From Gammaproteobacteria bacterium (lineage in GTDB: Bacteria > Pseudomonadota > Gammaproteobacteria > Arenicellales > JAANXG01): a stretch of DNA of 64,000 nucleotides. Every line of letters starts with the position of its first letter. The stretch's first letter is position 1. Both the position numbers and the translations under genes were made by a program. Below are positions 9,408-64,000 of the stretch, one piece after another. The DNA is taken from assembly GCA_024639325.1 (NCBI GenBank), contig JAHEIO010000009.1, positions 14-64,013 of the forward strand, in the 5' to 3' direction. The notes under the pieces are model-generated. The model was given only the letters and a program-made list of their open reading frames with translations. It was not told the DNA's origin and made no database searches.

Positions 9408-9428
9408 TCGCGCCCCCGATCGGGGCGA

Positions 9429-33728: not shown

Positions 33729-34808
33729 TTACTCGGTGGTACGCGTCTGAGGCGTGGACCTCTGCGCCCGACGATAGCGCTGGGGACTCATGCCGGTCCA
33801 GTTGCGGAATGCGCGAGAAAACGCCGACAACTCGGAGTATCCGAGAAGCAGCGCAACCTCGGTCAGCGGCATGTCCGAGTCCTTGATGTAGTGCAGCGAC
33901 AGCTCCTGTCTGGCGGCGCGGACTAGGTCCTGGAACGACAACCCGTGTGCGTTCAGTTCGTTTTGAAACCGGCATTCGGAAATGCCAAACAGACGGGCGA
34001 TCTGTGCCAGGCTGGGGGGGGTAGTGCTGAGGTTCAGTTTTATCTGATTGCGAACGATGGAAGCGAAAGTCTCGGGATTGTCGTGAAGCTCGCAGCGAGA
34101 CCTCAGAAACGGTTCAATGATGGAAAAAAGGTACGGGTCCTGGTCGGGCATTCGAGCGTCCAGATCACTGCGCCTGAAAGCCATGGCATTGGTGCGCCGG
34201 CCGAACAGTACGGGTGCGCCGAATACGTTCTCGTGTTCCGAATCGAATTGCGGCGCAGGGTGCTCGAAACGGATCTCGAGTGGTGACCAGCCCTTGCCGA
34301 GAGCGCTGCGGAACACATTCCAGAACATTCCCATCGACAGCTCGGCATCCTGTCTGCGGTCGCTGATGCGCGGATCATAGATCCTGTAGCTGAGCCAGAG
34401 AATGTCGCCGTCCTGGATGAGACTGAAGCTAGACTGCTCCTGGTGCGCCGGAAAATAAGTCTCCATGTTGCGCAGCGCGGCGGAAAGCGTCGGGGAGCTG
34501 ATTGCGGCGTAGCCGATGGCACCCAGCTTTTTGGGCTCGAACTGTGCGCCGAAGTGAAGACCGAAATTGTCATTGCCGGTTTGCCGGGCGGCCTCGGTGA
34601 ACAGCTGACAGAACTGTTGCAGGCTGATCTCCCGTATTGGACTGCCGAGATCCTCGACACTGAGCGCGGTAGAGCCGAAGATCGAATCCACATCACCATG
34701 ATTTAGCTCGATCATATCGGCCACACCCGTTGCGGCTGACGCAAGTACTTTCGACGGCTCTGCAATAGTGTTCATATTGCCGCTGCTTGGCAGTTGCTTT
34801 CGATTCAA
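33729..34808 (-). CDS. AraC family transcriptional regulator (N-terminal ligand/arabinose-binding-like domain + C-terminal HTH_18)
   Basis: The C-terminal tandem HTH is SLAQIARLFGISECRFQNELN...PLTEVALLLGYSELSAFSRAFRNWTGMSPQRYR. It is divergent from the BMC/ABC operon. Start 34808 or ATG 34775. Confidence 0.9.
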   Translation of the reverse strand: MNRKQLPSSGNMNTIAEPSKVLASAATGVADMIELNHGDVDSIFGSTALSVEDLGSPIREISLQQFCQLFTEAARQTGNDNFGLHFGAQFEPKKLGAIGYAAISSPTLSAALRNMETYFPAHQEQSSFSLIQDGDILWLSYRIYDPRISDRRQDAELSMGMFWNVFRSALGKGWSPLEIRFEHPAPQFDSEHENVFGAPVLFGRRTNAMAFRRSDLDARMPDQDPYLFSIIEPFLRSRCELHDNPETFASIVRNQIKLNLSTTPPSLAQIARLFGISECRFQNELNAHGLSFQDLVRAARQELSLHYIKDSDMPLTEVALLLGYSELSAFSRAFRNWTGMSPQRYRRAQRSTPQTRTTE

Positions 34809-34928
34809 CCTGCTCCGAGCGGCATAGCGCCGTCCACATCACAGGCTTTAAGCGGTCAGAATGTCTTAATATTCACCCGAAATCAACCGGCGCGGCGGCG
34901 ATAACCAGGGACTTGGACGGGGAAATAC

Positions 34929-34989
34929 TGTCAAATTCTAGAGAAAAGCTGTCAAGCGGGGTTGCAATAAAGCGGGCAAACTCAATAAT
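34929..34989 (+). promoter_or_regulatory. direct TGTCAA repeats (21-bp spacing) abutting a sigma70-like promoter for the ABC/BMC operon
   Basis: TGTCAA at 34929-34934 and 34950-34955. TTGCAA (34962-34967), a 16-nt spacer, then AATAAT (34984-34989). AGGAGG RBS before ATG 35044. Also AAGCGGG at 34954 and 34970. Confidence 0.4.
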
Positions 34990-35043
34990 GGGGCGAAATA
35001 AAGAAGATAAATCTCAACAGCCATACCAAACAGGAGGATACAG

Positions 35044-36177
35044 ATGAAGCTCACCCGGAGACAATTCAATAAAACCGCAGCCGCCACCGTAGGCTTGGCC
35101 GCAATGAGCCCGCTTCACCGGGCCCTCGCAGATCGTAATGATCAGATGAATATACTGTGTTGGGAGGGGTACAACTCGGACGAAGTGCTGGGCCCTTTTC
35201 GCGACGCGAATGCCGGTGCCACGGTGCGGGCGGAGAGTGGAACGTCTGATCCGGACATGATCAACAAGCTCCGTGCAGGTGAAGTCAACGTATGGGACCT
35301 GATCAATGTGAACCAGCCCTGGGCAAGTGCACAGCTGTATCCCGAAAAATTGATTAAGCCGCTCAACAAGGATCGGTTCATGCCTTATTTCGAGAGGATG
35401 CTGCCGGAATTTTCGGGTCCATATCCCCTGGCCTTCGCCGACGACGGTGAACTCATCGGCATGCCCCAGCGGTATGGTCCGTTCAGCTTCGTGGTCAATA
35501 CGGACAAGATAAGCCGAGGCATGGCGGAAGATCAGGGTTGGAAACTGTTTCTGGATCCCGGTCTGAACCAGCGTTACGGTATCCTCACTTATGACAACTG
35601 GAACATCATGCACATGTGCCTGACCGGCGACCAAAATCCTTTCGACCCAATGGACGACGCCGGACTGGAGACCTTCAAGGGCACGGCGGAAGCCGTTTTT
35701 GCGGGCGCCAAGCTGCTGACGGACGACCTGGTGGCCATGAACACCGCGCTGATCAACGGGGAAATCGACGCTTATTTCACGGGGGGCACCTATACCGCGT
35801 CTCCCGCACGCCTGGATGGTGCGACCAATATCCGGGGAATTACGCCGAATTCCGGTCCGGTTGACGGCAAGGGCGGCGTTGTCTGGATCGAACTCACCTC
35901 GGCCGTAAACAATCCCGACCCGTCGATACTGGCGGAAGATTTCCTCGAATTCGTGCAGGATCCCGAAATCTGCAAGGCGGTGAGCTTTGCGGAGGGTACT
36001 TACAACCCCGTGAGCCAGATGGGCGATTCGAAGGTATTTGCCCAGTACGACGAAGATGAACTCGATGCAATACAGTGGGACAGCCTCGGCGAAGAGATGG
36101 CGCGATCGCTGGATTATCAGGTCGTTGCCTCCTACGACAAGCTGAACGAGATCTACAACGCTGCCAAGCGGGGTTGA
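35044..36177 (+). CDS. ABC transporter substrate-binding protein, PotD/PotF-like (polyamine/amine family), Tat signal
   Basis: MKLTRRQFNKTAAATVGLAAMSPLHRALA is a twin-arginine signal. The size and composition fit PotD-family receptors. Confidence 0.8.
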   Translation: MKLTRRQFNKTAAATVGLAAMSPLHRALADRNDQMNILCWEGYNSDEVLGPFRDANAGATVRAESGTSDPDMINKLRAGEVNVWDLINVNQPWASAQLYPEKLIKPLNKDRFMPYFERMLPEFSGPYPLAFADDGELIGMPQRYGPFSFVVNTDKISRGMAEDQGWKLFLDPGLNQRYGILTYDNWNIMHMCLTGDQNPFDPMDDAGLETFKGTAEAVFAGAKLLTDDLVAMNTALINGEIDAYFTGGTYTASPARLDGATNIRGITPNSGPVDGKGGVVWIELTSAVNNPDPSILAEDFLEFVQDPEICKAVSFAEGTYNPVSQMGDSKVFAQYDEDELDAIQWDSLGEEMARSLDYQVVASYDKLNEIYNAAKRG

Positions 36178-36197
36178 TACGCTCCTTCCAGGCCCTA

Positions 36198-36225
36198 CCG
36201 ACCGGGCAGCACGATGCCCGGTCGG
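36198..36225 (+). other. intercistronic stem-loop between the SBP and ATPase genes
   Basis: ccgaccgggc - agcacgat - gcccggtcgg is a perfect 10-bp stem (11 bp if a36208 pairs with t36215). There is no U tract. Confidence 0.6.
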
Positions 36226-36259
36226 GGACGCCTAAAGCCTGCTCAATAATCTTTCTCCC

Positions 36260-37345
36260 ATGCCGCCGGAACCGATACTTCGCCTTGAAAATATCGTCAA
36301 GCGCTTCGGCGCCTTTACGGCGCTCCACCATATTGATCTGGAAATCGATGAAGGCGAGTTTCTGACCATAGTCGGGCCGTCCGGCTGCGGTAAAACCACC
36401 CTGATCCGACTGCTGGTTGGAATCGATGAACCGACAGAAGGCCGAATCTGGTTGCGCGACAAGCGCATAGAAAAAGTGCCCGCAAATCTGCGGCCGACCT
36501 GCATGGTGTTTCAGTCGCTGGCGCTGTTCCCGCATCGTTCCGTGGGAGAAAACATAGAATTTCCATTGAAGATTCGCGGTGAGACTGCGTCTCGGCGCAA
36601 GGAACGGGCGCTAGAGCTGCTCGACCTGCTTCATTTGCCCCACGATTTCTATGACAAAAGGATCAACCAGTGCTCGGGCGGAGAGCGTCAGCGGATTGCG
36701 CTGGCACGGGCGTTGGCGTTCGATCCGGAAATCTTGTTCTTCGACGAACCGCTTTCAGCACTGGATTTCCGCTTGCGCAAAAAACTGGAAAAGGAACTCA
36801 AGGATCTTCACGAACGCACGGGCAAAACTTTCGTGTACATTACCCACAGCCTGGAAGAGGCGATGGTCATGTCAGACCGAATCGCCATCATGAGACAGGG
36901 GCGCTTCGAGCAGATCGCCGTGACGGACGAGATTTATGCGCGTCCGATCAGCAGGTTCGTGGCCGAGTTCATGGGCGAGGTGAATCTGTTCGACGTGGAG
37001 GGAACGGCTTCGGGCGGCCTGCGCGGGCGAGGTGTGGAAATACAAGCCAACGCCACGGGTGGGGGTACGGAGCTCACTTTGCCGCAAGGGACGCAAGGCG
37101 CCCTGATGGTGCGTCCGGAGTCGGTGCGATTTCTCCACCCGGGCCAAACCGCGGATTTTATCGTGCGGGGGATTCTACGCGCGTCCTACGCGCTTGGTTC
37201 CCGCACGCAGTACAAGGTCGAATCCTCCGAAGGAATCGAACTCGCGGTGGAAAAGCTCAGGCAGGACCGGTTTATGGGAAACGTGGGGGACGAGGTCGTG
37301 CTGGGTTTCGATATGCAGAACACGCATATGATCAGGGAGCGCTAG
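36260..37345 (+). CDS. ABC transporter ATP-binding protein (PotA-like, with C-terminal TOBE-like domain)
   Basis: Walker A GPSGCGKTT, signature CSGGERQR, Walker B ILFFDEPLSALD. 361 aa. Confidence 0.9.
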   Translation: MPPEPILRLENIVKRFGAFTALHHIDLEIDEGEFLTIVGPSGCGKTTLIRLLVGIDEPTEGRIWLRDKRIEKVPANLRPTCMVFQSLALFPHRSVGENIEFPLKIRGETASRRKERALELLDLLHLPHDFYDKRINQCSGGERQRIALARALAFDPEILFFDEPLSALDFRLRKKLEKELKDLHERTGKTFVYITHSLEEAMVMSDRIAIMRQGRFEQIAVTDEIYARPISRFVAEFMGEVNLFDVEGTASGGLRGRGVEIQANATGGGTELTLPQGTQGALMVRPESVRFLHPGQTADFIVRGILRASYALGSRTQYKVESSEGIELAVEKLRQDRFMGNVGDEVVLGFDMQNTHMIRER

Positions 37346-37349
37346 CGGT

Positions 37350-38204
37350 TTGGAACGTTCAGACCGCAAAATCGGCTTTCTGAGCGCCGTTCCGATCACC
37401 GTGATCCTGATGCTCAGCTTCACGGCGCCTCTGCTGGTGGTCCTGCTGTTTTCCGTGATGCCTCCGAAGGTGTTTACCCTTGCTCACGTGCCGGACTTTT
37501 CGTCCTACGGCGTGCTCTTCAGCCAGGGCTACTACCGGTCCCTGCTCTGGTCCCTTGGCACGGCGCTGGCGGCAACGGTCCTGTTGTTTCTGATTTGCTG
37601 GCCGCTGGCTTTTGCCATGGCCAAGGTGTTCAAGGGATTCACTCTGTTCATTACCGTCGCCGTGGTAATCACCCTGTTCGTGTCCGAGAATATCAGGTTG
37701 TTCGGTTGGGTTCTTACCCTGATGAAGGGGGGGTTGATCGAAGGGCATCTCCGGGCATGGGTGGGCTGGAGTTTCGAGGGCGCGCTCTACAACGTTCCCG
37801 TGATCATCTTCGGACTGGTTTACGTCTATTTTCCGTTCATGCTGTTTCCTCTGGTCCAGGGGATTTCAATGGTCCCGGATGACGCGCGCCAGGCGGCGGC
37901 GGACCTGGGCGCAACCAGACGGCAGATATTCTGGGAAGTCGATCTACCGCTGTCGGCGCCGGGCATCGTCATCGGATCGCTGCTGACATTCGTGCTGGGT
38001 GCGGGGGCACTGGCCGAATCCAAGCTGCTTGGCGGTCAGGCGGTTATCGTTATCGCCGATGAGATCGAAACGGCTTTCACCTACGGTCAGAACTGGCCTT
38101 TGGGATCGGCCTTATCGATCATACTCATCATTATTATCGGGTCTTTGGCGGTGTTCGGGGTCAGCCGGGTGGATCTGGACAAGATAATGGGCAGGCGGCG
38201 CTGA
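37350..38204 (+). CDS. ABC transporter permease (PotB-like)
   Basis: 284 aa with 6 TM segments and an EAA-type loop DDARQAAADLGATRRQIFWEV. TTG start 4 nt after the upstream stop. Confidence 0.85.
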   Translation: MERSDRKIGFLSAVPITVILMLSFTAPLLVVLLFSVMPPKVFTLAHVPDFSSYGVLFSQGYYRSLLWSLGTALAATVLLFLICWPLAFAMAKVFKGFTLFITVAVVITLFVSENIRLFGWVLTLMKGGLIEGHLRAWVGWSFEGALYNVPVIIFGLVYVYFPFMLFPLVQGISMVPDDARQAAADLGATRRQIFWEVDLPLSAPGIVIGSLLTFVLGAGALAESKLLGGQAVIVIADEIETAFTYGQNWPLGSALSIILIIIIGSLAVFGVSRVDLDKIMGRRR

Positions 38205-39016
38205 TGCGGATCGGCCGAGCGACACGGATTGCACTCTATCTCTATGGCGTTCTTGTCATAGCGTTTCTGTATCTTCCTCTCCTGTCAGTGGGATTTGCTT
38301 CGGTGTCCAAGGCGCGGTACCTGACATTTCCCATAAAACGCTACGCTTTTCAGTGGTACGGCAAGGCGCTGGAGAGCTACACCGTCCAGGATCTGCTGTG
38401 GACGTCGTTGAGCATTGCCGGCATCGTGACCGTGATTAGCATGATCGTCGGTTTTTTCGGTGCCTTGGCGTTCGCCAGGTATCAGTGGCGTTTTCGCGGC
38501 GTGTTCCAGAAGCTCATCCTGTTGCCCATCTTTTTCCCCCAGGCCGTCCTTGGGCTGGCCTTGTTGATGTGGTTCAACTCGATTGGCATCATTCCGGACT
38601 GGAAGACGGCGGTGGTGGCTCATCTCGTCTGGATATCGCCGATTGCGACGCTGGTCATCGCAATTCGTGCGTACAGTTTTGATCCCGCGCTTGAAGAGGC
38701 CGCCCGCGACATGGGAGCCTCGACCTGGGTGGTATTGAAGGAGGTAACCGGACCGCTGCTGATGCCGGGTGTGATTTCGGCGGGATTGTTTTCATTCCTG
38801 TTGAGCTGGGGAAACTTCCCTTTGTCATTGTTTACAACCGGGGCCGATTCAACATTGCCGGAATGGCTTTATGCCAAGATGGTGTCGGGTTATTCCCCGC
38901 TGGTGCCCACCGTGGGCATACTTTCCATCGCGACGTCGATGATACTCTTGATCGTCGCGTTTACTATTTACTGGTTCGTCCGCTCGGCTCGCGAAAGGGG
39001 TGCGCGGATCATTTGA
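38204..39016 (+). CDS. ABC transporter permease (PotC-like)
   Basis: 270 aa with 6 TM segments and an EAA-type loop LEEAARDMGASTWVVLKEV. The ATG overlaps the upstream TGA by 1 nt. Confidence 0.85.
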   Translation: MRIGRATRIALYLYGVLVIAFLYLPLLSVGFASVSKARYLTFPIKRYAFQWYGKALESYTVQDLLWTSLSIAGIVTVISMIVGFFGALAFARYQWRFRGVFQKLILLPIFFPQAVLGLALLMWFNSIGIIPDWKTAVVAHLVWISPIATLVIAIRAYSFDPALEEAARDMGASTWVVLKEVTGPLLMPGVISAGLFSFLLSWGNFPLSLFTTGADSTLPEWLYAKMVSGYSPLVPTVGILSIATSMILLIVAFTIYWFVRSARERGARII

Positions 39017-39038
39017 CACCAATTACGGAGGTGCTGAT

Positions 39039-39818
39039 ATGTTGACATCCATCAAGGATCGTTCGGTCATCGTTACCGGCGGTTCCAAAGGTATAGGTAA
39101 GGGCATCGCCCAGGTGTTTGCCGCGCAGGGGGCCAAGGTCATGATCGCCGCGCGGGGCGAAGTGGCCGGCGCCGCCGCCGCCGCCGAATTACAGGCGGCC
39201 GGTGGAACGGCGGATTTCTGCCGGTGCGACGTCTCCGACTGGGACTCCGTGCAGCACCTTGTGGACAGGACGGTTGACGCTTTCGGCGGACTCGACGTCA
39301 TGTGTGCGAACGCCGGGGCCTTTCCCCAGACCAAAATGATCGATATGGATCCCGAGGAGTGGGACGACGTCATGGCTACTAATCTCAAGAGCGCATTTCT
39401 GTGCGTCAAGGCCTGTATCCCGCAGTTCGACAAAGCGGGCGGAGGCCGAGTAGTCTTGACGTCTTCCATTACCGGTCCGGTTACGGGCTATCCCGGTTGG
39501 TCGCACTACGGTGCATCGAAATCCGGACAGCTGGGTTTTTTGAAAACCGCGTGCATGGAACTGTCAAAATACAACGTTACCATCAACGCGGTGATGCCGG
39601 GCAACATCTACACCGAGGGGCTGAAGGATCTGGGCCAGGATTATCTGAACACCATGGCGGCCTCAATTCCGCTCAAGCGGCTCGGCGACGTCAAGGATAT
39701 TGGCAACGCCGCTCTGTTCTTCGCCTCTGACGAAGCGGGGTACATCACCGGCCAGACCATGGTGGTCGATGGCGGCCAGATCATACCCGAGTCCCTGGAA
39801 GCCATCGAGGAAATCTGA
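39039..39818 (+). CDS. short-chain dehydrogenase/reductase (candidate amino-ketone / amino-alcohol dehydrogenase)
   Basis: GGAGG RBS before ATG 39039. TGGSKGIGKG cofactor motif, NAG, and the catalytic YGASK. Confidence 0.85.
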   Translation: MLTSIKDRSVIVTGGSKGIGKGIAQVFAAQGAKVMIAARGEVAGAAAAAELQAAGGTADFCRCDVSDWDSVQHLVDRTVDAFGGLDVMCANAGAFPQTKMIDMDPEEWDDVMATNLKSAFLCVKACIPQFDKAGGGRVVLTSSITGPVTGYPGWSHYGASKSGQLGFLKTACMELSKYNVTINAVMPGNIYTEGLKDLGQDYLNTMAASIPLKRLGDVKDIGNAALFFASDEAGYITGQTMVVDGGQIIPESLEAIEEI

Positions 39819-39850
39819 CTTCATCACGGATCGTTAGCCGGGATACGACA

Positions 39851-40858
39851 ATGCCAGAAAGTGCCACGCCTTACGATGTAATGATAGAGCGCCTGGGCGT
39901 TCTTGCCAATCAGTCCCTCGGGCTATGGGATTTGCCGGAGGGCGCAACGGCGCGCCTGATCAACGTATCGGAAAATGCCACCTACCTCGTCGAGGCTCCG
40001 AACGGGTTCAAATCGATTCTTCGAGTGCATCGCGAAGACTATCACACACGCAACGCAATCAGTTGCGAGCACGCCTGGTCCAAAGCGCTCGACGAAGAGG
40101 GCGGGGTCCACACTCCGGATATTCTTCCGGGCCGTGACGGCAGCGGCATCCAGACCGCTTCGGTGGATGGTTTACCCGGCGAACGCCACATGGCCATGTT
40201 CGAGTTCCTGGAAGGCGAACATCCCGAAGAGGACGCGGACCACCTGGTGGAGTCGTTCGAGGAATTGGGCGAGATAGCCGCACGGACGCACAATCATTCC
40301 GTGGCATGGGTGCGCCCGGCCAATTTCGAACGGCTCGTTTGGGACCTCGACACCGTATTCGGTCCGCGGGCGTACTGGGGTGACTGGCGAGATGCGCCCG
40401 GCGTAACGGAGCAGATAAAATCGCTGCTCGAGCGGCTTCAGTCCGTCGTCGTTCGGCGCTTGACAGAATTTGGCAAAGGGGCTGAGCGATTCGGCCTGAT
40501 CCACGCCGACATGCGGCTGGCCAACCTGATCATAAGCGACGGAACAACCAGGCTCATCGATTTCGATGATTGCGGGCTGGGTTGGTTCATGTATGACTTC
40601 GCTGCCGGGATCAGCTTCATGGAGGACCATCCACAGATACCCGCTCTGAAGGACGCGTGGGTTCGGGGTTACAGAAAAGTACGCGGGCTGAGCGCCGCAG
40701 ATGAAGATGAGATCGATACCTTCGTCATGCTGCGCCGCCTGGCCCTGCTGGCCTGGATAGGCTCCCATATCGAGGTCGATACGGCAAAGGAGCTTGCACC
40801 CGCATTCGCACCCGTCACGGCGGAGTTGGCGGAAATTTATCTTGCCCATCAGGAATGA
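39851..40858 (+). CDS. APH/choline-kinase-fold phosphotransferase (candidate amino-alcohol kinase)
   Basis: Brenner motif HADMRLANL and the metal-binding IDFDD. 335 aa. It occupies the same position and has the same fold as the amino-propanol kinase of RMM-type BMC loci (established literature). Confidence 0.8.
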   Translation: MPESATPYDVMIERLGVLANQSLGLWDLPEGATARLINVSENATYLVEAPNGFKSILRVHREDYHTRNAISCEHAWSKALDEEGGVHTPDILPGRDGSGIQTASVDGLPGERHMAMFEFLEGEHPEEDADHLVESFEELGEIAARTHNHSVAWVRPANFERLVWDLDTVFGPRAYWGDWRDAPGVTEQIKSLLERLQSVVVRRLTEFGKGAERFGLIHADMRLANLIISDGTTRLIDFDDCGLGWFMYDFAAGISFMEDHPQIPALKDAWVRGYRKVRGLSAADEDEIDTFVMLRRLALLAWIGSHIEVDTAKELAPAFAPVTAELAEIYLAHQE

Positions 40859-40888
40859 GCGATCGCCGCCGAGCGCTTCGACTACCAA

Positions 40889-40914
40889 TGTCAATTCGCC
40901 GCAGTTAGTGTCAA
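40889..40914 (+). promoter_or_regulatory. second pair of direct TGTCAA repeats (20-bp spacing) in the 253-nt gap upstream of the aminotransferase-AldDh-shell genes
   Basis: TGTCAA at 40889-40894 and 40909-40914, in the same orientation as the pair at 34929/34950. Confidence 0.35.
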
Positions 40915-41111
40915 GTTTCAAAGCCGCGCCTGTGCCACGCTAGATCTCGGAATGCATCGAGGCGGCGCCGTCTGGGCACTTTTCGCGGTCACATCACTTC
41001 ATCCTTCGGCAAGCCGTGACCATGCCGCGGCACCTGCGGCAAAGTGCCTTTAACGTCGTCAGGCCGCATCGATGCCGCCGCGCACTGGGTAACGAACCGG
41101 GAGGCAACACC

Positions 41112-42383
41112 ATGAGCGAAGCAAAACTCGAATTCCTGGATAGATCGAGGGCATTCTGGAATCCCGGGAAGACGCAGGATTGGCAGGACATGGGCGTCGA
41201 CCTCGTGATCGACCGGCGGGAGGGATATTACCTGTTCGATATGGATGGACGGCGCCTTATCGATCTGCATTTGAATGGAGGCACGTACAATTTGGGCCAT
41301 CGGAATCCTGAACTGGTGGAGGCGCTGAAGGCCGGCAGTGCCCGTTTCGATATGGGTAATCACCATTTCCCCGCACTTGCCCGCACCGCGCTGGCCGAAG
41401 CGCTTGCAGCCTGCGCACCGGCACCGAATATGGTGTACACCGCGTACGGTTCGGGTGGTGGTGAAGCCATCGATATTGCCATCAAAACCGCCCGCCACGC
41501 CAAGCAAAGACGCAAGATCGTGTCCATCGTCAAGGCCTACCACGGGCACACGGGTCTGGCGCTGAAAACCGGTGACGACCGGTTTTCCAAACTGTTTCTG
41601 TCAGAGGATACGCTGGGTGAGTTCGTGCAGGTCCCGTTCAACGACCTCAATGCCATGGAAGATGCCCTGCGCGGGCGGGACGTCGCAGCCGTAATCATGG
41701 AAACCATCCCGGCAACCTACGGTTTTCCGATGCCGCAGGAGGGTTATCTGCCCAATGTCAAGAAGCTCTGCGAAAAGTACGATGCCCTGTACATTGCCGA
41801 CGAGGTTCAGACGGGCCTGATGCGATGCGGTGAGCTCTGGGCATGCACGAAATACGGCATCGAGCCGGACATCATGGTGACGGGCAAGGGCATCGGCGGC
41901 GGCATGTATCCGATCGCCTGCACCTGTATCGGTGAGCATTGCGGCGGCTGGCTGACTGAAGATGGATTCGGCCACATCTCCACCGGCGGCGGCGCCGAAC
42001 TCGGTTGCATCGTGGCGATGAAAGTCCTCGAGATCGTGCAGCGCCCGGAAGTGAGGACCATGGTTCGATACGTTTCCGACTACATGCGCGCGGGGCTGGA
42101 CCGGATCATGACCGAGTACCCCGACTTCTTCATTGGGATCCGTCAGCACGGCGTCGTGATGGGCCTCGAGTTCAATCACGAGCAGGGAGCAAAACCGGTG
42201 ATGAAAAACCTATACGACAACGGCGTGTGGGCTATTTTTTCGACCCTCGATCCACGCGTGCTGCAGTTCAAGCCAGGCCTGCTCATGACCCAGGCCGACT
42301 GTGAAGAAGTATTGCGGCGGGTCGAGATCGGCATCGGTCTCGCCCGGGATGAAGTCATGGGCCGCCACAGGAAGAGCGCCTGA
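41112..42383 (+). CDS. class-III aminotransferase-fold PLP enzyme (candidate amino-alcohol-phosphate phospho-lyase)
   Basis: Start ATG 41112 (MSEAKLEF). ADEVQTGLMRCG and VTGKGIGGG (PLP-Lys region). About 423 aa. Phospho-lyases of amino-alcohol phosphates share this fold. Confidence 0.8.
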   Translation: MSEAKLEFLDRSRAFWNPGKTQDWQDMGVDLVIDRREGYYLFDMDGRRLIDLHLNGGTYNLGHRNPELVEALKAGSARFDMGNHHFPALARTALAEALAACAPAPNMVYTAYGSGGGEAIDIAIKTARHAKQRRKIVSIVKAYHGHTGLALKTGDDRFSKLFLSEDTLGEFVQVPFNDLNAMEDALRGRDVAAVIMETIPATYGFPMPQEGYLPNVKKLCEKYDALYIADEVQTGLMRCGELWACTKYGIEPDIMVTGKGIGGGMYPIACTCIGEHCGGWLTEDGFGHISTGGGAELGCIVAMKVLEIVQRPEVRTMVRYVSDYMRAGLDRIMTEYPDFFIGIRQHGVVMGLEFNHEQGAKPVMKNLYDNGVWAIFSTLDPRVLQFKPGLLMTQADCEEVLRRVEIGIGLARDEVMGRHRKSA

Positions 42384-43954
42384 TGGAACCCCAAGCGAGG
42401 ACCCTGGTCGATATATCGGGCAGCCACGCCGCGCTGGCGGGACGCGCCGACATGGTGCTGGAAAGGGCGCGCTGGGCGGCGGAAGTTTTCCAGCGTTATG
42501 ATCGTGAGTCGACCATGGCGATAGCCGATGCCGTTGCCGCGGCGGCACACGATAGCGCCGAAAGATTCGCCGACTGGGCGGTGCGGGAAACGGGATTCGG
42601 CGTTGCTGCACACAAGAAACTTAAGAACCAGTTGACGTCCCGGCCTTTGGTGGATTTTTATCGAAACGACGACTACGTCAATCCGCGCATCGACGAGGCG
42701 CGAAAGATCGTCGAGATCCCCCGGCCCGCCGGCGTAATCCTGGCGCTTACTCCTTCGACCAACCCCATAGCCACGCTCAACTACAAGGTTCTGATCTCGC
42801 TGATGACGCGCAACGCGATCGTTATCAGCCCGCATCCGGCGGCGCGCGAATGCAGCGTCGATGCGGCCCGCGCACTCGGCGAGGCCGCGATGGATGCGGG
42901 CGCCCCCGACGGCGCCATCCAGATCATAGAGAATCCCGGCATTCCTCTAGTCGAAGAACTCATGGTGTCGCCCAAGACCTCGGTGATCCTCGCCACCGGC
43001 GGCACGGCGATGGTGCGTTCCGCCTACTCGTCGTCGAATCCGGCAATTGGCGTCGGACCCGGCAACGCACCGGTGTTCGTTGATTCAACCGCGGACATCG
43101 ACAAGGCGGCAAAGCGTATCGTGGAGTCGAAATCTTTCGACAACTCGGCGTTGTGTACGAACGAGAGCGTCCTGATTACCCTGGAAGACGTCGATGCGCG
43201 CTTGCGCCGTTCGTTCAAGCAGGCAAAGGCTTACATTTGCGACGCCGACGACGTCGACCGCTTGCGACGGTATTTGTTTCACGATCGTGGATTCAATATC
43301 GAATGCATTGGTCGGGATGCCGCGTGGATTGCACAGGAATGCGGTATCCGTGTACCCGACGGCACGCTGGTTCTGCTGGCGCCTATTGCGCAGATTGGCG
43401 TTGAGGAGCCGCTTTCGAGGGAGAAACTGTGTCCGGTGCTTGCCTATCATGTGGTCAAGCGCCGCAACCAGGCGATCACGCAGGCTCGCGCGGTGCTGCG
43501 CCTTGCCGGCGCCGGCCACTCCGCCGCCGTGCACGCCATGGACGAGCAGGTGGCGATGGCATTTGCGTCCGCGGTGGAGGCTTATCGGGTCGTCGTGAAT
43601 ACCCCCTGTACCCAGGGCGCCGCCGGTTTTCAGACCGCGCTGGCACCTACTTTCACCGTGGGCACCGGATTTTACGGCCGCAGTTCAATTGGAGAGAATA
43701 TAGGGCCAGGACACCTCGTGCACTGGACTCGCCTGGCCTATAACTCGGATGCGTCTGAATATTTCGGCAACTACCGCGGGTTGAAACCGGGTTTCAGCGG
43801 CCCGCTGCCCGAGGCGCCCTCCGACGGTGTGCCGGGATCCAACGGATACCGGGCGAGACGCGCGGAAGCCGATGCCGGTGTTTTTTCCGGCGTAACGCGT
43901 GAGGAGTTGCGGCGCATGATTGCCGAAGAACTTCGCGCGGTGCTTAGGAAGTAG
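42383..43954 (+). CDS. CoA-acylating aldehyde dehydrogenase (EutE/PduP-type) with C-terminal encapsulation-peptide-like tail
   Basis: ILATGGTAMVRSAYSSSNPAIGVGPGNAPV and the catalytic-Cys segment FDNSALCTNES. A Pro/Gly-rich linker is followed by the amphipathic TREELRRMIAEELRAVLRK at the C-terminus. The ATG overlaps the upstream TGA. Confidence 0.9.
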   Translation: MEPQARTLVDISGSHAALAGRADMVLERARWAAEVFQRYDRESTMAIADAVAAAAHDSAERFADWAVRETGFGVAAHKKLKNQLTSRPLVDFYRNDDYVNPRIDEARKIVEIPRPAGVILALTPSTNPIATLNYKVLISLMTRNAIVISPHPAARECSVDAARALGEAAMDAGAPDGAIQIIENPGIPLVEELMVSPKTSVILATGGTAMVRSAYSSSNPAIGVGPGNAPVFVDSTADIDKAAKRIVESKSFDNSALCTNESVLITLEDVDARLRRSFKQAKAYICDADDVDRLRRYLFHDRGFNIECIGRDAAWIAQECGIRVPDGTLVLLAPIAQIGVEEPLSREKLCPVLAYHVVKRRNQAITQARAVLRLAGAGHSAAVHAMDEQVAMAFASAVEAYRVVVNTPCTQGAAGFQTALAPTFTVGTGFYGRSSIGENIGPGHLVHWTRLAYNSDASEYFGNYRGLKPGFSGPLPEAPSDGVPGSNGYRARRAEADAGVFSGVTREELRRMIAEELRAVLRK

Positions 43955-43963
43955 GCGGACAGC

Positions 43964-44575
43964 ATGGCGGAACTGCGTTCGTTCATTTTTATAGATCAGT
44001 TGCAGCCGCAGACGCTGGCCTATATCGCGACCTGGATGCGGGGTTCATTGCCGCGTCGAAACATGGCCGCACAAATTATCGAGGTATCGCCCGGACTGGA
44101 TATCGAGGCGCTGACCGATGTTGCACTCAAGGGCGCCAACATCAAAGTCGGACTGCTCGTAGTCGAGCGCCAGTATGGGTACTTGGAGTTTCACTCCCGA
44201 TCCACCGCCGAGGTCAAGGCCGGCGCGCAGGCCCTGCTGGATGCGCTGGGCGCGAGCGTCGAGGATGCCACGCCACCACAGATTCTCGGTTCCAAGGTCG
44301 TTACTCGCGTCGACCACCAGCATGCCTTTCTGATCAATCGCAACAAGCTTGGTTCCATGGTGCTTGGCAACGAGTCGCTGTACCTGCTGGAGTGTCGTCC
44401 CGCGTCTTACGCCATTTTGGCCTGCAACGAAGCGGAGAAAGAAGCCAACATCAAAGTCATCGACTACCGAATGATCGGCGCCAACGGGCGGCTCTATCTC
44501 TCCGGCGACGAGGCCGAGATCCGAAATGCGCGCAGCGTAGCCGAGGCTGTACTTCACGAAGGCGGGGTGGCCTAG
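43964..44575 (+). CDS. tandem BMC-domain shell protein (BMC-T type) 1
   Basis: 203 aa with two BMC-like halves (IIEVSPGLDIEALTDVALKGANIKV... and LLECRPASYAILACNEAEKEANIKV...). The N-terminus MAELRSFIFIDQLQPQ is as I recall for RMM-locus BMC-T proteins. Confidence 0.8.
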   Translation: MAELRSFIFIDQLQPQTLAYIATWMRGSLPRRNMAAQIIEVSPGLDIEALTDVALKGANIKVGLLVVERQYGYLEFHSRSTAEVKAGAQALLDALGASVEDATPPQILGSKVVTRVDHQHAFLINRNKLGSMVLGNESLYLLECRPASYAILACNEAEKEANIKVIDYRMIGANGRLYLSGDEAEIRNARSVAEAVLHEGGVA

Positions 44576-44578
44576 GAA

Positions 44579-45028
44579 ATGGTCGACGAACTGCGCCAGG
44601 CGATCCGAAGCATTCTGCTCGAGGAGCTTGCTGCACATGGAGTCGGGCCGACTCCGCAGTCCGCGCCGGGGATTCACGTCGAGGAGGTCGAGATCAATTC
44701 CGACGTAGACCTGGCACAATTCGTTCGACGCTTGCTGCAGCTCGCCCGCGACGGCGGCGCACTCTCGGCAATCGAATCGGGGCGCCACGTATTCAGGTTG
44801 CGCACAGCCAGTGCCCCGCAGCGGTCGGTGCAACCGCCGGTGGCATCCAGTCGAACGCCGGTTGGCGGTACGATGACGTTCGACGCGGGCCTCATCACTG
44901 AAAAACAGGTTCGCAATCTTCCTGAAAATATCTCAGTGGTAAGGGTGGGCGGCAGCGTGCGGCTCACGCCGCTGGCCAGCGATGCCATGCGGCGCGCGGG
45001 GATTAAAATAGAAAAGGTGACATCATGA
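44579..45028 (+). CDS. BMC-associated protein of unknown function with N-terminal encapsulation-peptide-like helix
   Basis: 149 aa: an amphipathic MVDELRQAIRSILLEELAA, then a Pro/Ser-rich linker, then a ~50-aa C-terminal module LITEKQVRNLPENISVVRVGGSVRLTPLASDAMRRAGIKIEKV. The start is 3 nt after the BMC-T stop and the end overlaps the BMC-P start (ATGA). Confidence 0.7.
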   Translation: MVDELRQAIRSILLEELAAHGVGPTPQSAPGIHVEEVEINSDVDLAQFVRRLLQLARDGGALSAIESGRHVFRLRTASAPQRSVQPPVASSRTPVGGTMTFDAGLITEKQVRNLPENISVVRVGGSVRLTPLASDAMRRAGIKIEKVTS

Positions 45029-45267
45029 TTCGTGGACGCATAACGGGCCGAATCTGGTCCAGCAAACACATCGAAACCCTGCCCAACGGAGCGCTTCTTG
45101 AAGTGACTCTCGATACCGGCGGCAGTCTGATCGCGCTGGATCCGCTCGGATGCGCCGAAGGTGAAGCCGTTCTCGTGACTCAGGGCTCGGTTGCCGCGGG
45201 CTACTTTACCAAGTCCAAAGCACCGATAGATGCGCTGATCATCGGGTCTATCGATGAACAGGGCTGA
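45025..45267 (+). CDS. BMC-P pentameric vertex protein (EutN/CcmL family)
   Basis: 80 aa. MIRGRITGRIWSSKHIETLPNGALLEV...ALDPLGCAEGEAVLVTQGSVAA...PIDALIIGSID is collinear with EutN/CcmL. Confidence 0.9.
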   Translation: MIRGRITGRIWSSKHIETLPNGALLEVTLDTGGSLIALDPLGCAEGEAVLVTQGSVAAGYFTKSKAPIDALIIGSIDEQG

Positions 45268-45324
45268 CCCAGGCGCAGCTATATTGTCAACGGCCAACAG
45301 GCCACAACTTTAGGAGAACACAAC

Positions 45325-45609
45325 ATGTCGAATCAGGCTATCGGAATGATCGAGACCCGCGGCTACGTTCCGGCGCTGGCCAGCGCCGACGCGATGGTCA
45401 AAGCAGCCAATGTCGAAATCGTATCACGCAATGAAGTCGGAGGCGGACTGGTATCCGTAGTGATCAAGGGCGACGTCGGTGCCGTCAAGGCGGCGACGGA
45501 AGCCGGCTCCGAGGCGGCTAATCAGGTTGGCGAAGTGGTCGCAGTACACGTTATTCCCAGGCCCCACCAGGACCTGAACCAGCATTTCAGTCTGGCGGCC
45601 GGCAAGTGA
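45325..45609 (+). CDS. BMC-H hexameric shell protein (PduA/EutM/CcmK-like)
   Basis: 94 aa. Canonical AIGMIETRGYVPALASADAMVKAANVEIV...GGGLVSVVIKGDVGAVKAATEAG..A. AGGAG RBS. Confidence 0.95.
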   Translation: MSNQAIGMIETRGYVPALASADAMVKAANVEIVSRNEVGGGLVSVVIKGDVGAVKAATEAGSEAANQVGEVVAVHVIPRPHQDLNQHFSLAAGK

Positions 45610-45642
45610 CGCCGGGTTGGGTCGGGAGAGGCGAGTGCTGAC

Positions 45643-46272
45643 ATGACCGAGTTGAGGGTCTATCTGCCAATCCACGATCTGCAATCCCAGTTCTCCGCTT
45701 ATCTGAGCACGCCGATGCGGGCCAGGGGATATCCGCCTTTCGAAGGACAGCACAGTCTTATCATCGAGGTGTCTCCGGCGCTCGCCATACACCGAATATC
45801 AGACCTCGCCCTGAAGGCGGCGCCCGATATGGAACCGGGCATTCTGTTCACTGAAAGACAGTACGGATTGCTGGAACTGCATTCTTCGGATCGGGATGAG
45901 CTGGATGCGGCGGGCAAGGCGATCCTCAAGGGTATAGGCGCAATTGCAGGAGACCAGCTCGCGCCCGCCATCCTGTTCGAAGACATCATCGAGAATTTAT
46001 CGGACCAGCACGCAATCATTTTGAACCGCTCCCGCTCTGCCTCCATGCTGGTCCCGGGCTCGTCGCTGCTTCTTTACGAAATGAGCCCCGCGCTGTTCGC
46101 CTGTGTCGCCGCCAACGAAGCGGAACGCGCCGCGCCTGCAGCGATCCTCAACGACGTTCAGATGATGGGGGTGTCGGGTCGCATCTTCATGTCCGGCGAT
46201 ACCGGTGACCTGACCAGGGCGCGGGATGCCATTACGCGGACGCTGAAAGCGGTCAAGGGGCGCAAGAAATGA
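45643..46272 (+). CDS. tandem BMC-domain shell protein (BMC-T type) 2, paralog of 43964..44575
   Basis: 209 aa. It shares MxELR...I..LQ.Q..AY..T.MR, IIEVSPAL, ERQYGLLELHS, DQHAIILNR and NEAER with BMC-T 1. 13 of the first 27 residues are identical by hand alignment. Confidence 0.8.
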   Translation: MTELRVYLPIHDLQSQFSAYLSTPMRARGYPPFEGQHSLIIEVSPALAIHRISDLALKAAPDMEPGILFTERQYGLLELHSSDRDELDAAGKAILKGIGAIAGDQLAPAILFEDIIENLSDQHAIILNRSRSASMLVPGSSLLLYEMSPALFACVAANEAERAAPAAILNDVQMMGVSGRIFMSGDTGDLTRARDAITRTLKAVKGRKK

Positions 46273-46943
46273 GCAACTGGAAAAACGCTTACAGGTCATT
46301 TTATTACGCGAACGCCGACGAGCCGGAAGACCCGGTTCTGGCGCCGCGCGAGACCGCGCTGCTGGTGATCGATATTCAGAATACCTACATGGAGGTGCCC
46401 GGCGATGCCGCCGAGGCAGCACGATGGGGCCCGTTTTTTTCCAGGATGCACGAAACGGTTATTCCCAATACGGCTGCGTTGATCGAATTGTGCAGAGCAA
46501 GGAACATCGAGGTCATCTTCGCGCGCATTGCTTGCCTTACGGAAGACGGCCGGGATCGGTCTCTGAGCCAGAAGAAACCCGGCTTCAATTACCTGTTGCT
46601 GCCGAAGGACCGCGAGGACAGCCAGCTTGTGCCCCAACTACAGCCCAAAGGCGACGAGATAGTCATGCTGAAGACCACGGACAGCGCTTTGACAGGTTCG
46701 AACCTGCGGTTGATCCTGAACAACATGGGCATTCGAAACGTCGTCTTGGCGGGTATTTTTACGGATCAATGCGTCAGCAGCACAGTGCGCAGTCTCGCTG
46801 ACGAAAGCTTCAACGTACTGGTGGTCGACGACTGCTGCGCCGCGGCGACAATGGAACTGCACGACCACGAACTGGAAATCATAAATATGATCTACTGTCA
46901 CGTGGTTCAGTCCGAGGATATCCGGTCTTTCATCCGTAATTGA
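46269..46943 (+). CDS. isochorismatase-family cysteine hydrolase
   Basis: 224 aa. Candidate triad elements are LLVIDIQN (Asp), LKTTDSA (Lys) and FTDQCVSST (Cys). ATGA overlap with the BMC-T 2 stop. Confidence 0.85.
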   Translation: MSNWKNAYRSFYYANADEPEDPVLAPRETALLVIDIQNTYMEVPGDAAEAARWGPFFSRMHETVIPNTAALIELCRARNIEVIFARIACLTEDGRDRSLSQKKPGFNYLLLPKDREDSQLVPQLQPKGDEIVMLKTTDSALTGSNLRLILNNMGIRNVVLAGIFTDQCVSSTVRSLADESFNVLVVDDCCAAATMELHDHELEIINMIYCHVVQSEDIRSFIRN

Positions 46944-46981
46944 TGGCAAAAGCTGAAAAGATCCGTTAAAACCATGCCGGC

Positions 46982-48181
46982 ATGCCACGCGCGGAAGCAA
47001 AAATCATCGGCCTTGTCAGCACGGGACATTTTTTCAGCCATTTCTACCTGCTGCTGCTGCCGCCGCTGTTCCCCATTTTGCGCGACTATTATGGCGTCGG
47101 TTTTACCGAACTCGGTTTTGCACTGACCGCCTACAGTATCGCGACGGCCTGTACCCAGGTCCCTGCCGGATATATCGTAGACCGCCATGGTGCACGAAGG
47201 CTGTTGATCGCCGGACTGCTGCTCGAATCTTTCGCCATCGCCGGCATCGGTTTGTTCAATACGTTCAACGCGTTCATCGTGATGCTGGTGGTCGCCGGGG
47301 TAGCCAATTCCGTGTACCACCCCGCCGACTATTCGATACTGAACCGGGCGGTGAATAAATCGCGCATGGGCCGCGCATTTTCAATACATACGTTCGCCGG
47401 GTACCTTGGTGAAGCCGTCGCTCCAGTTACGATCCTTGCCCTCATGGTTTGGGTGGACTGGCACACGGCTCTGATCGTGTGCGGCATCGGAGGTGGTATC
47501 GCCGCCGTATTCCTGGCGTTCAATTCCCCTTTGCTGGACGCCGCGCCGAATCCCGATGAATGTCCTCAGGCCGGCGCGAACGGTGGAGGTCTGCGCTTGC
47601 TGATATCCCTGCCCATCGTCATGGGGCTGCTTTTTTTCATAGGCATATCCATCACCGGCCGCGGCATCACCGGTTTTGGCGTCAGCGCAATGACCGAACT
47701 CCACGCGATTTCCCTGGCCAGTGCGGGTGCCCTGTTGTCCTGCTACCTGTTCGCCATGCCCGTGGGTGTGTTGGTGGGAGGCTGGGTCGCGGACAGTACA
47801 TCGCAGCACGGCCGCATGGCGGCCGTATGCTTCAGCGTGGTTTGTTTTGTCATGTTCGCCGTTGCCGCATTGCCGCTGCCGCCGACAGTCATAGGGATGC
47901 TGTTCGGAATTGCCGGTTTGTTTTCCGGAATGGTGGCGCCGTCGCGTGACATGCTGATACGTTCCATTACGCCGCCCAAAGAAACCGGCAAGGTGTTTGC
48001 ATTTGTCTCCACCGGGTATAACATCGGCGGCATTCTGGGGCCTCCGTTGTTCGGGTATTTGCTCGATCACTACTCGCCCCGGTCACTGTTCTGGGTGGTC
48101 GGTGTGGCGGCCCTGATGACGATGCTGACCGTGATGTTTGCCGCCGGGCGGCACATACGTCCCGCGGCGGCGAATGGATGA
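46982..48181 (+). CDS. MFS transporter
   Basis: 399 aa with about 12 TM segments and an MFS loop GYIVDRHGARRLL. Confidence 0.85.
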   Translation: MPRAEAKIIGLVSTGHFFSHFYLLLLPPLFPILRDYYGVGFTELGFALTAYSIATACTQVPAGYIVDRHGARRLLIAGLLLESFAIAGIGLFNTFNAFIVMLVVAGVANSVYHPADYSILNRAVNKSRMGRAFSIHTFAGYLGEAVAPVTILALMVWVDWHTALIVCGIGGGIAAVFLAFNSPLLDAAPNPDECPQAGANGGGLRLLISLPIVMGLLFFIGISITGRGITGFGVSAMTELHAISLASAGALLSCYLFAMPVGVLVGGWVADSTSQHGRMAAVCFSVVCFVMFAVAALPLPPTVIGMLFGIAGLFSGMVAPSRDMLIRSITPPKETGKVFAFVSTGYNIGGILGPPLFGYLLDHYSPRSLFWVVGVAALMTMLTVMFAAGRHIRPAAANG

Positions 48182-48188
48182 AAAACGA

Positions 48189-49628: not shown

Positions 49629-49803
49629 GAATCGCGCCTAACTCCTTCAAACAAAAGGCAGATTATACATCTAAGTGTGCTATTATTCTTGTATATACCG
49701 GCAACTTGGGGTACACCTGAGATAGTGAGAATCTGGAAGGACCACTCAAAAATCAAGAAATTCTATTCCAGGTACCCGTTGAACCTTGTGGGGTGAATAC
49801 GAT

Positions 49804-60150: not shown

Positions 60151-60158
60151 GAGTCATC

Positions 60159-63983: not shown

Positions 63984-64000
63984 CTTACATAAAGGGGACA

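Follow-up and report, generated by a model that had tools for sequence, protein, structure and literature searches.

An RMM2-type microcompartment locus, probably for small amino alcohols, in an uncultured gammaproteobacterium

A contig of an uncultured gammaproteobacterium (JAHEIO010000009.1, assembly GCA_024639325.1) carries, within the 64,000-nucleotide (nt) stretch of DNA analysed here and called the window below, a run of genes for a protein-shelled bacterial microcompartment (BMC), preceded by an ATP-binding cassette (ABC) importer and a divergent AraC-family regulator. Here we show that this run is a real, intact gene cluster for such an organelle, which probably burns small amino alcohols, and that by its gene order it is a member of the catalogued RMM2 type of microcompartment locus, also named AAUM2.

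Results

Gene content of the locus

The cluster comprises a substrate-binding protein (SBP), an ATPase and two permeases, a short-chain dehydrogenase/reductase (SDR), an APH-fold kinase, a class-III-fold pyridoxal-phosphate (PLP) enzyme, a CoA-acylating aldehyde dehydrogenase (AldDh), four shell proteins, a 149-aa protein and an isochorismatase-family hydrolase, followed by a major facilitator superfamily (MFS) transporter (Table 1). A preliminary description of this DNA had listed 16 open reading frames (ORFs), and ORF listing and translation recovered 16 of 16 with the same coordinates and strands, most of them with a Pfam family, so that its gene-by-gene account is borne out. The motifs that it had quoted, TGGSKGIG, YGASK, HADMRLANL, IDFDD and FDNSALCTNES, were every one found in the translations, and the two gaps in the run have the sizes it gave, 82 nt (36178-36259) and 253 nt (40859-41111).

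Three gene starts deserve comment. The AraC-family regulator probably begins at ATG 34775, giving 348 aa as called in one of the relatives (L085), and not at TTG 34808 of the mechanical ORF. For the SDR the likely start is ATG 39039, as the beginning MLTSIK is conserved in relatives, and there would hence be no overlap with permease 2; for the PLP enzyme it is likely ATG 41112 and not the upstream GTG 41016, since a start of the form MS[EQ]AK is kept in 38 relatives.

Table 1. Genes and intergenic regions of the microcompartment locus (positions in the window)
Feature	Position	Strand	Basis or remark
AraC-family regulator, QhpR-like	33729..34775	-	Arabinose_bd E 2.5e-48 + HTH_18; divergent from operon
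Divergent intergenic region between regulator and transporter/BMC operon	34776..35043	.	putative control region
Twin-arginine (Tat)-exported periplasmic SBP, distant PotD/PotF-like	35044..36177	+	
ABC ATPase, PotA/PhnT2-like	36260..37345	+	ABC_tran E 1.9e-32 + TOBE_2
ABC permease 1	37350..38204	+	Pfam BPD_transp_1
ABC permease 2	38204..39016	+	Pfam BPD_transp_1 E 4.8e-11
SDR	39039..39818	+	Pfam adh_short E 8e-56; open from GTG 39000
APH-fold kinase	39851..40858	+	Pfam APH E 5e-28
Intergenic gap, 253 nt	40859..41111	.	no element recognised
Class-III-fold PLP enzyme, RMM 'AutA' type	41112..42383	+	Aminotran_3 E 2e-71
CoA-acylating AldDh	42383..43954	+	Pfam Aldedh
BMC-Tdp trimer 1, rmmT1, MSM0275-like, 203 aa	43964..44575	+	PDB homology
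149-aa RMM-specific protein	44579..45028	+	no family match; syntenic homologue in Rhodococcus jostii RHA1
BMC-P pentamer (vertex), 80 aa	45025..45267	+	EutN_CcmL E 9.3e-18
BMC-H hexamer (facet), 94 aa	45325..45609	+	Pfam BMC E 4.2e-27
BMC-Tdp trimer 2, rmmT2, MSM0271-like, 209 aa	45643..46272	+	PDB homology
Isochorismatase-family cysteine hydrolase	46269..46943	+	Isochorismatase E 4.9e-34; translationally coupled to rmmT2
MFS transporter	46982..48181	+	Pfam MFS_1; lineage-specific neighbour

Shell proteins

A BMC-H gene (PF00936), a BMC-P gene (PF03319) and trimer genes lie within 2.3 kb of one another and beside the AldDh gene, which is what is generally looked for in a BMC locus. The preliminary description had made its reading depend on how the shell ORFs fare against these two profiles: the hexamer and the pentamer pass, and the trimers are secured by PDB homology. 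PF00936 sees trimer 1 poorly, in its C-terminal domain only (E 5e-9), and trimer 2 (45643-46272) gave no significant Pfam match, the best having E 0.19. In the PDB, trimer 1 matches MSM0275 (5l39, E 4.5e-83), followed by HO-5816, CcmP and CsoS1D, and trimer 2 matches MSM0271 (5suh, E 9.3e-83), followed by CcmP. By this homology both tandem-BMC proteins are unambiguously of the double-stacking BMC-Tdp kind and are two different trimers; they are paralogues, with E ~1e-83 for the Mycobacterium smegmatis counterpart of each and E ~1e-36 to 1e-40 for the other trimer of that species. The shell complement is a single BMC-H, a single BMC-P plus two distinct BMC-Tdp, with no further BMC genes among the scanned ORFs of the window.

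Conservation of the gene order and assignment to RMM2

Relatives were collected by an AldDh scan with one genome per species, which gave 40 proteobacterial loci at 59-97% identity, and their synteny was followed by tblastn. The nearest by AldDh is the uncultured gammaproteobacterium FCS_Gamma_070 (97%), followed by Arenicellales metagenome-assembled genomes (MAGs) at 81-85%. The conserved block reads AraC(-) / SBP-ATPase-permease-permease-SDR-kinase-PLP enzyme-AldDh-T-149aa-P-H-T, where T, P and H stand for the shell trimers, pentamer and hexamer. Such a synteny search had been proposed in the preliminary description, and the whole architecture, importer and AraC regulator included, recurs in 30 of the 34 informative proteobacterial loci. 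Gene by gene, the importer is adjacent in 30/34 loci with enough upstream sequence, each permease is kept in 31 related loci and the SDR in 35 relatives, the AraC gene is divergent and adjacent in 29 related loci, and an isochorismatase-family gene is present in 22 of the 35 with room enough for one. Of the proteins of the locus, the PLP enzyme is the best conserved (median identity 85%), with BMC-H at 85%, trimer 1 at 82%, and the SBP and SDR at 78% each; medians are lower for AldDh (69%), the kinase (63%), AraC (62%) and the 149-aa protein (43%).

Gammaproteobacterial hosts are Arenicellales, Competibacteraceae, Acidiferrobacter, Arhodomonas and Spiribacter; the alphaproteobacterial ones, in our grouping, are Mesorhizobium, Aquamicrobium, Fodinicurvata, Roseovarius, other Paracoccaceae, Tepidamorphus, Stappiaceae and the sponge-associated Spongiihabitans. 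Single relatives carry additions of their own: two GMC oxidoreductases and a different isochorismatase upstream in L013 (4174-8300), an extra BMC-H ahead of the SDR in L015 (~6552), and a ~6.6-kb insertion between kinase and PLP enzyme in L027 (1057-8730).

The catalogue of Sutter et al. (2021, Nat Commun 12:3809, PMC8217296), in its Supplementary Data 2, places RMM1 in various Actinobacteria and Proteobacteria and describes RMM2 (AAUM2) as RMM1-like with another gene order, found in various Proteobacteria and represented by 32 loci. The RMM shell is given there as one H, one P and two distinct Tdp. In the shell trees of that catalogue Pelagicola CECT 8287 is typed as RMM2, with PEL8287_02587 (T1, 203 aa), PEL8287_02589 (P) and PEL8287_02591 (T2, 209 aa), as are the Acidiferrobacter locus (prefix CL386; rmmT1 203 aa) and Roseovarius nubinhibens (rmmT2 209 aa, rmmP 81 aa); the RMM2 rmmT2 proteins seen in it are mostly of 209 aa, one being of 214 aa. 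One of our relatives, L040, is Pelagicola CECT 8287, now Roseovarius litorisediminis, and it has exactly the gene order of the window from AraC to isochorismatase, with proteins 61-84% identical. The window's shell proteins of 203, 209 and 80 aa are 83%, 80% and 76% identical to the catalogued CECT 8287 proteins, and the spacing of the PEL8287 tags (T1, +1, P, +1, T2) fits the order T-149aa-P-H-T. Because its gene order is identical to that of a locus whose shell genes are typed RMM2, the window locus is, on this comparison, a member of the RMM2/AAUM2 type. It resembles that type in its shell set (Tdp of 203 and 209 aa), its enzyme set, its proteobacterial hosts and the gene order of the member, and differs in nothing of substance; this lineage has in addition a downstream MFS gene. 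The novelty considered in the preliminary description, which was to fall if a described type had identical gene content and host range, is therefore lost to RMM2 and L040. The importer, the AraC/QhpR regulator and the isochorismatase-family gene, which are conserved with RMM2 here, go undiscussed in the text of the catalogue, its diagrams aside.

SDR, kinase and aldehyde dehydrogenase

The best PDB matches of the SDR are 6ci8 (E 1.6e-90) and 6ci9 (E 1.3e-89), both the RMM SDR of M. smegmatis, followed by 3rih and 3pk0; judged by these matches it is clearly orthologous to the (S)-1-amino-2-propanol dehydrogenase of mycobacteria. The kinase matches PDB 6ef6 at E 3.6e-82 and is identical to it at 44.6% of 314 positions, the next match being at E 9e-12; by sequence this makes it unambiguously the orthologue of that M. 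smegmatis (S)-1-amino-2-propanol kinase. Mallette and Kimber reportedly showed in 2018 that the kinase solved as 6ef6 phosphorylates (S)-1-amino-2-propanol. In NCBIfam the AldDh matches the AdhE N-domain and acetylating acetaldehyde dehydrogenase. As such, the RMM enzyme set proposed in the preliminary description, namely SDR, APH kinase, class-III enzyme and PF00171 AldDh, is confirmed by Pfam, by the PDB orthology of SDR and kinase, and by an AutA-like profile of the class-III enzyme.

The class-III PLP enzyme

The nearest solved homologues of the PLP enzyme are the putrescine aminotransferase YgjG (E 1.5e-51) and PigE, with the ArgD/OAT group also near. Its PLP motifs are kept, DEVQTG as well as TGK(259)GIGGG with the catalytic Lys259. 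At position 385 (nt 42264-42266) it has Gln, in vlQfkPGL against tiRiePPL of YgjG, which replaces the Arg of the class-III motif xxRxxPPL; that Arg (GabT R398, OAT R413) we take to hold the carboxylate of the keto-acid/amino-acid co-substrate, and an enzyme that has lost it is less likely to be an ordinary transaminase. All of the family members (41/41), including non-BMC homologues at 51-58% identity, have the Gln. A 51% homologue adjoins an APH kinase on a Pseudomonas plasmid without BMC genes. On the whole, the enzyme is a candidate amino-alcohol-phosphate phospho-lyase and the putative signature enzyme of the organelle.

Two further non-BMC homologues, at 56-58% identity, lie on plasmids of Phyllobacterium zundukense (L082, 5706-8263) and Mesorhizobium mediterraneum (L084, 5706-8242), in translational coupling with a gene of the alkaline-phosphatase family and preceded by an Opp-type ABC transporter, a phosphoester/phosphonate-like context; a PhnF regulator and a DUF1045 gene are nearby in one of the two.

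A point of comparison is the RMM-like locus on plasmid pRHL2 of R. jostii RHA1 (NC_008270.1, ~400.5-407.5 kb), whose proteins are identical to those of the window at 46% (AldDh), 64% (T1), 46% (P), 72% (BMC-H), 63% (T2) and 40% (kinase). It differs in having a GntR regulator, an ethanolamine permease downstream and, in the class-III slot, a phospho-lyase of the ETNPPL/A1RDF1 type (5g4i E 2.4e-94, 6tor E 1.2e-87) with Lys at the position equivalent to Gln385. As the RHA1 slot holds a phospho-lyase-family enzyme, a phospho-lyase does occur in nature together with this kinase and shell. The RHA1 enzyme had suggested that RMM2 might use a class-III enzyme different from that of RMM1, an idea ruled out by AutA of Mycobacterium fortuitum, whose homologue profile, with YgjG and PigE, is that of the window enzyme; because of this shared profile, RMM1 and RMM2 share the YgjG-like class-III subfamily.

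In the RHA1 region (L081, NC_008270.1 392985-411548; locus coordinates 7560-14490), the phospho-lyase ends in the identical 31-residue tail of the neighbouring AldDh, encapsulation helix included, and is followed by a second identical T-hypothetical-P-H copy with the same WP accessions. It looks like a duplication grafted the AldDh targeting peptide onto the phospho-lyase.

Encapsulation helices and the 149-aa protein

The AldDh carries an encapsulation peptide (EP) in its C-terminal residues ~504-523 (nt 43892-43951), a tail of the form T(R/K)(D/E)ELRR(L/M)IAEELR..L behind a variable P/S/G-rich linker. The tail is kept in 38 of the 39 relatives that have the AldDh C-terminus on their contig, L039 being cut by its contig end, and in Rhodococcus RHA1, and a tail behind a linker is the textbook layout of an EP by the definition given in PMC8217296. 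The 149-aa protein, which gave zero matches in Pfam, NCBIfam and the PDB, begins with a conserved EP-like amphipathic helix, (D/E)LRQxIRSILxEEL, modelled as a helix at 2-19 by AlphaFold2 (AF2; pLDDT 72.8). The helix is succeeded by a small alpha/beta domain, which a disordered linker joins to a C-terminal domain, likewise small and rich in beta structure, with an invariant TPLAxD; Foldseek with the AF2 model returned no significant match. The 149-aa family comprises 733 cluster representatives at E <= 1e-3, or 458 when the limit is E <= 1e-10, nearly all of 135-175 aa, and a 145-aa hypothetical protein at the same position in RHA1 is a homologue (29% identity, E 1e-9). Inside the shell there would be either only AldDh and what the 149-aa protein brings, or cargo recruited in another way.

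Importer, regulator and hydrolase

The SBP had zero matches in single-sequence scans of Pfam, NCBIfam and the PDB. It has a twin-arginine signal (MKLTRRQFNK), and near-identical proteins carry precomputed PF13416/PF13343 matches and the NCBI name 'PotD/PotF family'. A family profile finds the PotD-type 8y5h as the best PDB entry at E 0.0017 and 1pot at E 0.49, both weak. The Tat signal, this weak profile match, the annotations of near-identical proteins and the operon context point, weakly, to its identity. The SBP family is uniform, the 120 best database clusters being 78-100% identical with a mean column identity of 84%, and since the 27-sequence alignment was therefore shallow, the AF2 model is poor (pLDDT 53) and unusable. 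The ATPase scores ~300 bits against NCBIfam PhnT2, PotA and potA, below the curated equivalog cutoffs of 356-482 bits. The regulator passes NCBIfam NF049968 (QhpR) with 298.6 bits against a cutoff of 250, and from the family name it may sense amines. As such, the Pot-like importer and the divergent AraC gene that the preliminary description placed upstream of the BMC genes are supported by Pfam and synteny, the Pot affiliation of the SBP being weak. The isochorismatase-family hydrolase has weak similarity to BiuH and RutB in NCBIfam.

The MFS gene, which had been counted with the system, lies beside the locus only in the window and in its 97%-identical relative (L001), and is probably outside the conserved system.

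Intergenic regions

The 253-nt gap gave no Rfam match, and its folding z-score of +1.7 means that it is no stabler than shuffled sequences; the length of the equivalent gap differs among relatives. An RNA element in this gap is ruled out by the zero Rfam matches window-wide and by the lack of a stable fold. In the divergent intergenic region (34776..35043) a single, weak sigma-70-like match (34962-34989, +) is no better than shuffled expectation; the counts of the promoter scan were likewise no better than shuffles, and the terminator scan gave mostly intragenic matches.

Surroundings

The surroundings in the window are ordinary chromosomal genes, and the borders of the locus show no tRNA, integrase or GC anomaly as signs of horizontal transfer. 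Further away, the first 4 kb (1-4000) have a GC content of 0.53 against ~0.60 elsewhere, with an RHS-repeat/DUF6531 fragment (1921-3171) and a PD-(D/E)XK nuclease gene (3595-4407), possibly a toxin-cassette remnant. A heterotetrameric sarcosine-oxidase-like set occupies 58900-64000, with a DAO beta subunit (58900-60150) and an alpha subunit with GCV_T (60440-63418), and a second DAO gene with a Pyr_redox_2/BFD pair, opine-oxidase-like, lies at 23454-26232. Other neighbours are a protein with four rhodanese domains (27121-28749, -), an M48 peptidase with LysM (48138-49628, +), which by its mechanical TTG start runs into the MFS gene, and a FimV-like protein carrying TPR repeats (49786-52824, +).

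Discussion

The explanation that we consider likely overall is a chromosomal RMM2/AAUM2 locus of an uncultured gammaproteobacterium from the neighbourhood of Arenicellales, a locus whose products turn 1-amino-2-propanol/aminoacetone into propionyl-CoA within a shell. An amine-responsive AraC/QhpR-like activator would turn on the divergent operon, and the PotD-like SBP, the PotA-like ATPase and the two permeases would import (S)-1-amino-2-propanol or aminoacetone, which appear the likeliest substrates. By orthology to characterised enzymes, the SDR would interconvert aminoacetone and 1-amino-2-propanol, and the APH-fold kinase would make 1-amino-2-propanol O-phosphate. From this the PLP enzyme may eliminate phosphate and ammonia to give propionaldehyde, which AldDh, brought into the shell by its C-terminal EP, would oxidise to propionyl-CoA. 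A shell of one hexamer, one pentamer and two stacked gated trimers would confine the aldehyde, the trimers being the likely route for larger molecules, and the 149-aa protein with its EP-like helix could, speculatively, be a core adaptor or scaffold. The amino-alcohol-to-aldehyde logic inside a shell, as put forward in the preliminary description, is the best available reading in view of the RMM enzyme and shell orthology.

How the aldehyde is made is where the proposals for RMM part. Mallette and Kimber are said to have described in 2018 a route of phosphorylation, then cleavage to propionaldehyde by a phospho-lyase. Two transaminase routes have been proposed in the literature, with aminoacetone transaminated to methylglyoxal (Axen et al. 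2014, PMC4207490) or aminopropanol to lactaldehyde (Ravcheev et al. 2019, PMC6620236). If the class-III enzyme were a true aminotransferase of this kind, the products would go on to pyruvyl-CoA or lactyl-CoA, respectively, in the latter case with the APH enzyme acting on the acyl product. Its nearest characterised homologues, as those of AutA, are indeed genuine transaminases (YgjG, PigE, ArgD/OAT), and it has no close relation to known phospho-lyases. However, a kinase orthologous to 6ef6, given the reported activity of the latter, makes a free-amine transaminase route redundant, every one of the 41 family members has Gln for the motif Arg, a homologue is paired with an APH kinase outside BMCs, and RHA1 has a phospho-lyase in a like context. 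Because of the kinase orthology, Gln385, the non-BMC kinase pairing and the RHA1 phospho-lyase, the evidence favours, of the three, the phosphorylation/phospho-lyase route, and a true aminotransferase seems to us quite unlikely.

The same chemistry could also serve another substrate, be it ethanolamine, which would yield acetaldehyde and acetyl-CoA, a different short amino alcohol, or a diamine-derived compound scavenged by the importer from the surroundings. This would suit an importer that is polyamine/aminoethylphosphonate-like (PotA and PhnT2 at ~300 bits), an AldDh whose nearest named families are acetylating acetaldehyde dehydrogenases, a kinase at 44.6% identity to the characterised one, and rhizobial PLP-enzyme homologues in phosphonate/phosphoester-like contexts, as well as the OpuAC-type importer of one relative (L023) and the RHA1 variant linked to an ethanolamine permease. 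An SDR of the aminopropanol type (E 1e-90), kept in 35 relatives, would nonetheless have no role with ethanolamine, and kinase, SDR and both trimers track the mycobacterial aminopropanol system, so that we regard another substrate as unlikely. A reading that goes further takes the 149-aa protein for a dedicated adaptor recruiting into the shell the EP-less, Arg-less YgjG-like enzyme, itself an independently evolved lineage of amino-alcohol-phosphate lyases, with AldDh and the 149-aa protein as the only carriers of encapsulation helices in the proteobacterial RMM2 organelle and a high-affinity importer whose substrate, an amino alcohol from the environment, need not be aminopropanol; taken together, these parts make a bold proposal to which we would give a small chance. 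That the locus has decayed to a non-functional remnant, or that its transporter and BMC genes came to lie together by chance, is hardly credible: nothing more than the gap of 253 nt inside the run and the weakly annotated SBP speaks for it, whereas the ORFs are intact, the junctions tight or overlapping and the catalytic motifs kept, and the order recurs in ~30 species-level Alpha- and Gammaproteobacteria genomes at 43-85% median protein identity.

We must however take into account several points that weigh against an RMM2 organelle working on aminopropanol through a phospho-lyase. The preliminary description had linked the class-III enzyme to ethanolamine-phosphate phospho-lyases, and a close relation is not found, as its match to ETNPPL (6tor) has E 1e-27 where that to YgjG has E 1.5e-51, and it shares 24% identity with the phospho-lyase-family enzyme of RHA1. 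This distance would lower the case that the enzyme is an ETNPPL, not that it acts as a phospho-lyase, and for the YgjG/PigE-like class-III subfamily we infer the phospho-lyase role in RMM1 and RMM2 alike. At 44.6% identity, the specificity of the kinase could differ from that of the characterised enzyme. The PLP enzyme, the kinase and the SDR are all without terminal extensions or an EP. One relative (L023, 2367-7079) lacks the SDR, and its ABC system is of the OpuAC type and its regulator a DeoR; such module swaps in some relatives may be hints at substrate variation within the type. The SBP profile reaches PotD weakly, and the isochorismatase-family hydrolase is unexplained by the proposed pathway. 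Furthermore, RMM/AAUM is listed among the types with unexplained NAD+ regeneration (PMC11626177).

This last point touches the claim that the metabolosome is complete, which did not hold: neither a phosphotransacylase (PTAC; PF06130/PF01515) nor an Fe/Zn alcohol dehydrogenase family, which in a full core serve to recycle CoA and NAD+, was found in the ORFs between 33.7 and 48.2 kb or in the further ORFs of the window that were scanned. An incomplete core is already known for RMM (PMC4207490, PMC11626177). The SDR might recycle NAD(P)H.

Next to RMM1/AAUM1 of M. smegmatis and Rhodococcus (MSMEG_0269-0277), the window locus shares an orthologous SDR, kinase and both trimers, an AutA-type enzyme, the same AldDh EP, the core order AT-AldDh-T-hyp-P-H-T, with AT for the class-III enzyme and hyp for the hypothetical protein, and the absence of both PTAC and alcohol dehydrogenase. 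RMM1 is organised as GntR - APC permease - AT - AldDh - shell - kinase - SDR, with alpha/beta hydrolases (PMC4207490, PMC6620236), an organisation that the window locus does not have. Instead, SDR and kinase lie upstream of the shell genes and not downstream, an ABC importer stands in place of an APC/GabP permease, an AraC/QhpR-like regulator in place of GntR, and an isochorismatase-family hydrolase in place of the alpha/beta hydrolases. With the EUT and PDU systems it has in common an aldehyde intermediate oxidised by an EP-tagged CoA-acylating AldDh, but it is without a B12- or glycyl-radical signature enzyme, PTAC and alcohol dehydrogenase; its aldehyde would come from an ATP-dependent kinase and a PLP enzyme, and its trimers are of the Tdp type, as in carboxysomes. 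The importer is like PotABCD and PotFGHI in its four genes, for a binding protein, an ATPase with C-terminal TOBE and two BPD_transp_1 permeases; it differs in that the binding protein reaches PotD by profile search only and the ATPase stays below the NCBIfam equivalog cutoffs. Its ligand is presumably an amino alcohol, unlike the polyamine of Pot systems.

As a discovery the locus has little value, since the type, its gene order and its proteobacterial hosts have stood in a public catalogue from 2021 on, and GenBank already contains a MAG that is 97% identical. It is, however, a clean and complete example of RMM2, a type for which we found no experimental paper, and as such it is useful for RMM/AAUM, where the phospho-lyase step and the cofactor recycling are unproven. 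It offers testable handles in the invariant Gln at the transaminase Arg position, the EPs on two proteins only, the 149-aa family and the cultured carriers, which among the relatives are Roseovarius litorisediminis CECT 8287, R. aestuarii KCTC 22174, Fodinicurvata fenggangensis DSM 21160, Aquamicrobium soli KCTC 52165, Acidimangrovimonas pyrenivorans KCTC 62192 and Spiribacter onubensis. The questions left, concerning the lyase step, the roles of the 149-aa protein and the hydrolase, the ligand and the cofactors, belong to the RMM/AAUM type and not to this window, and for the type as a whole the ligand of the conserved ABC importer would reveal the natural substrate.

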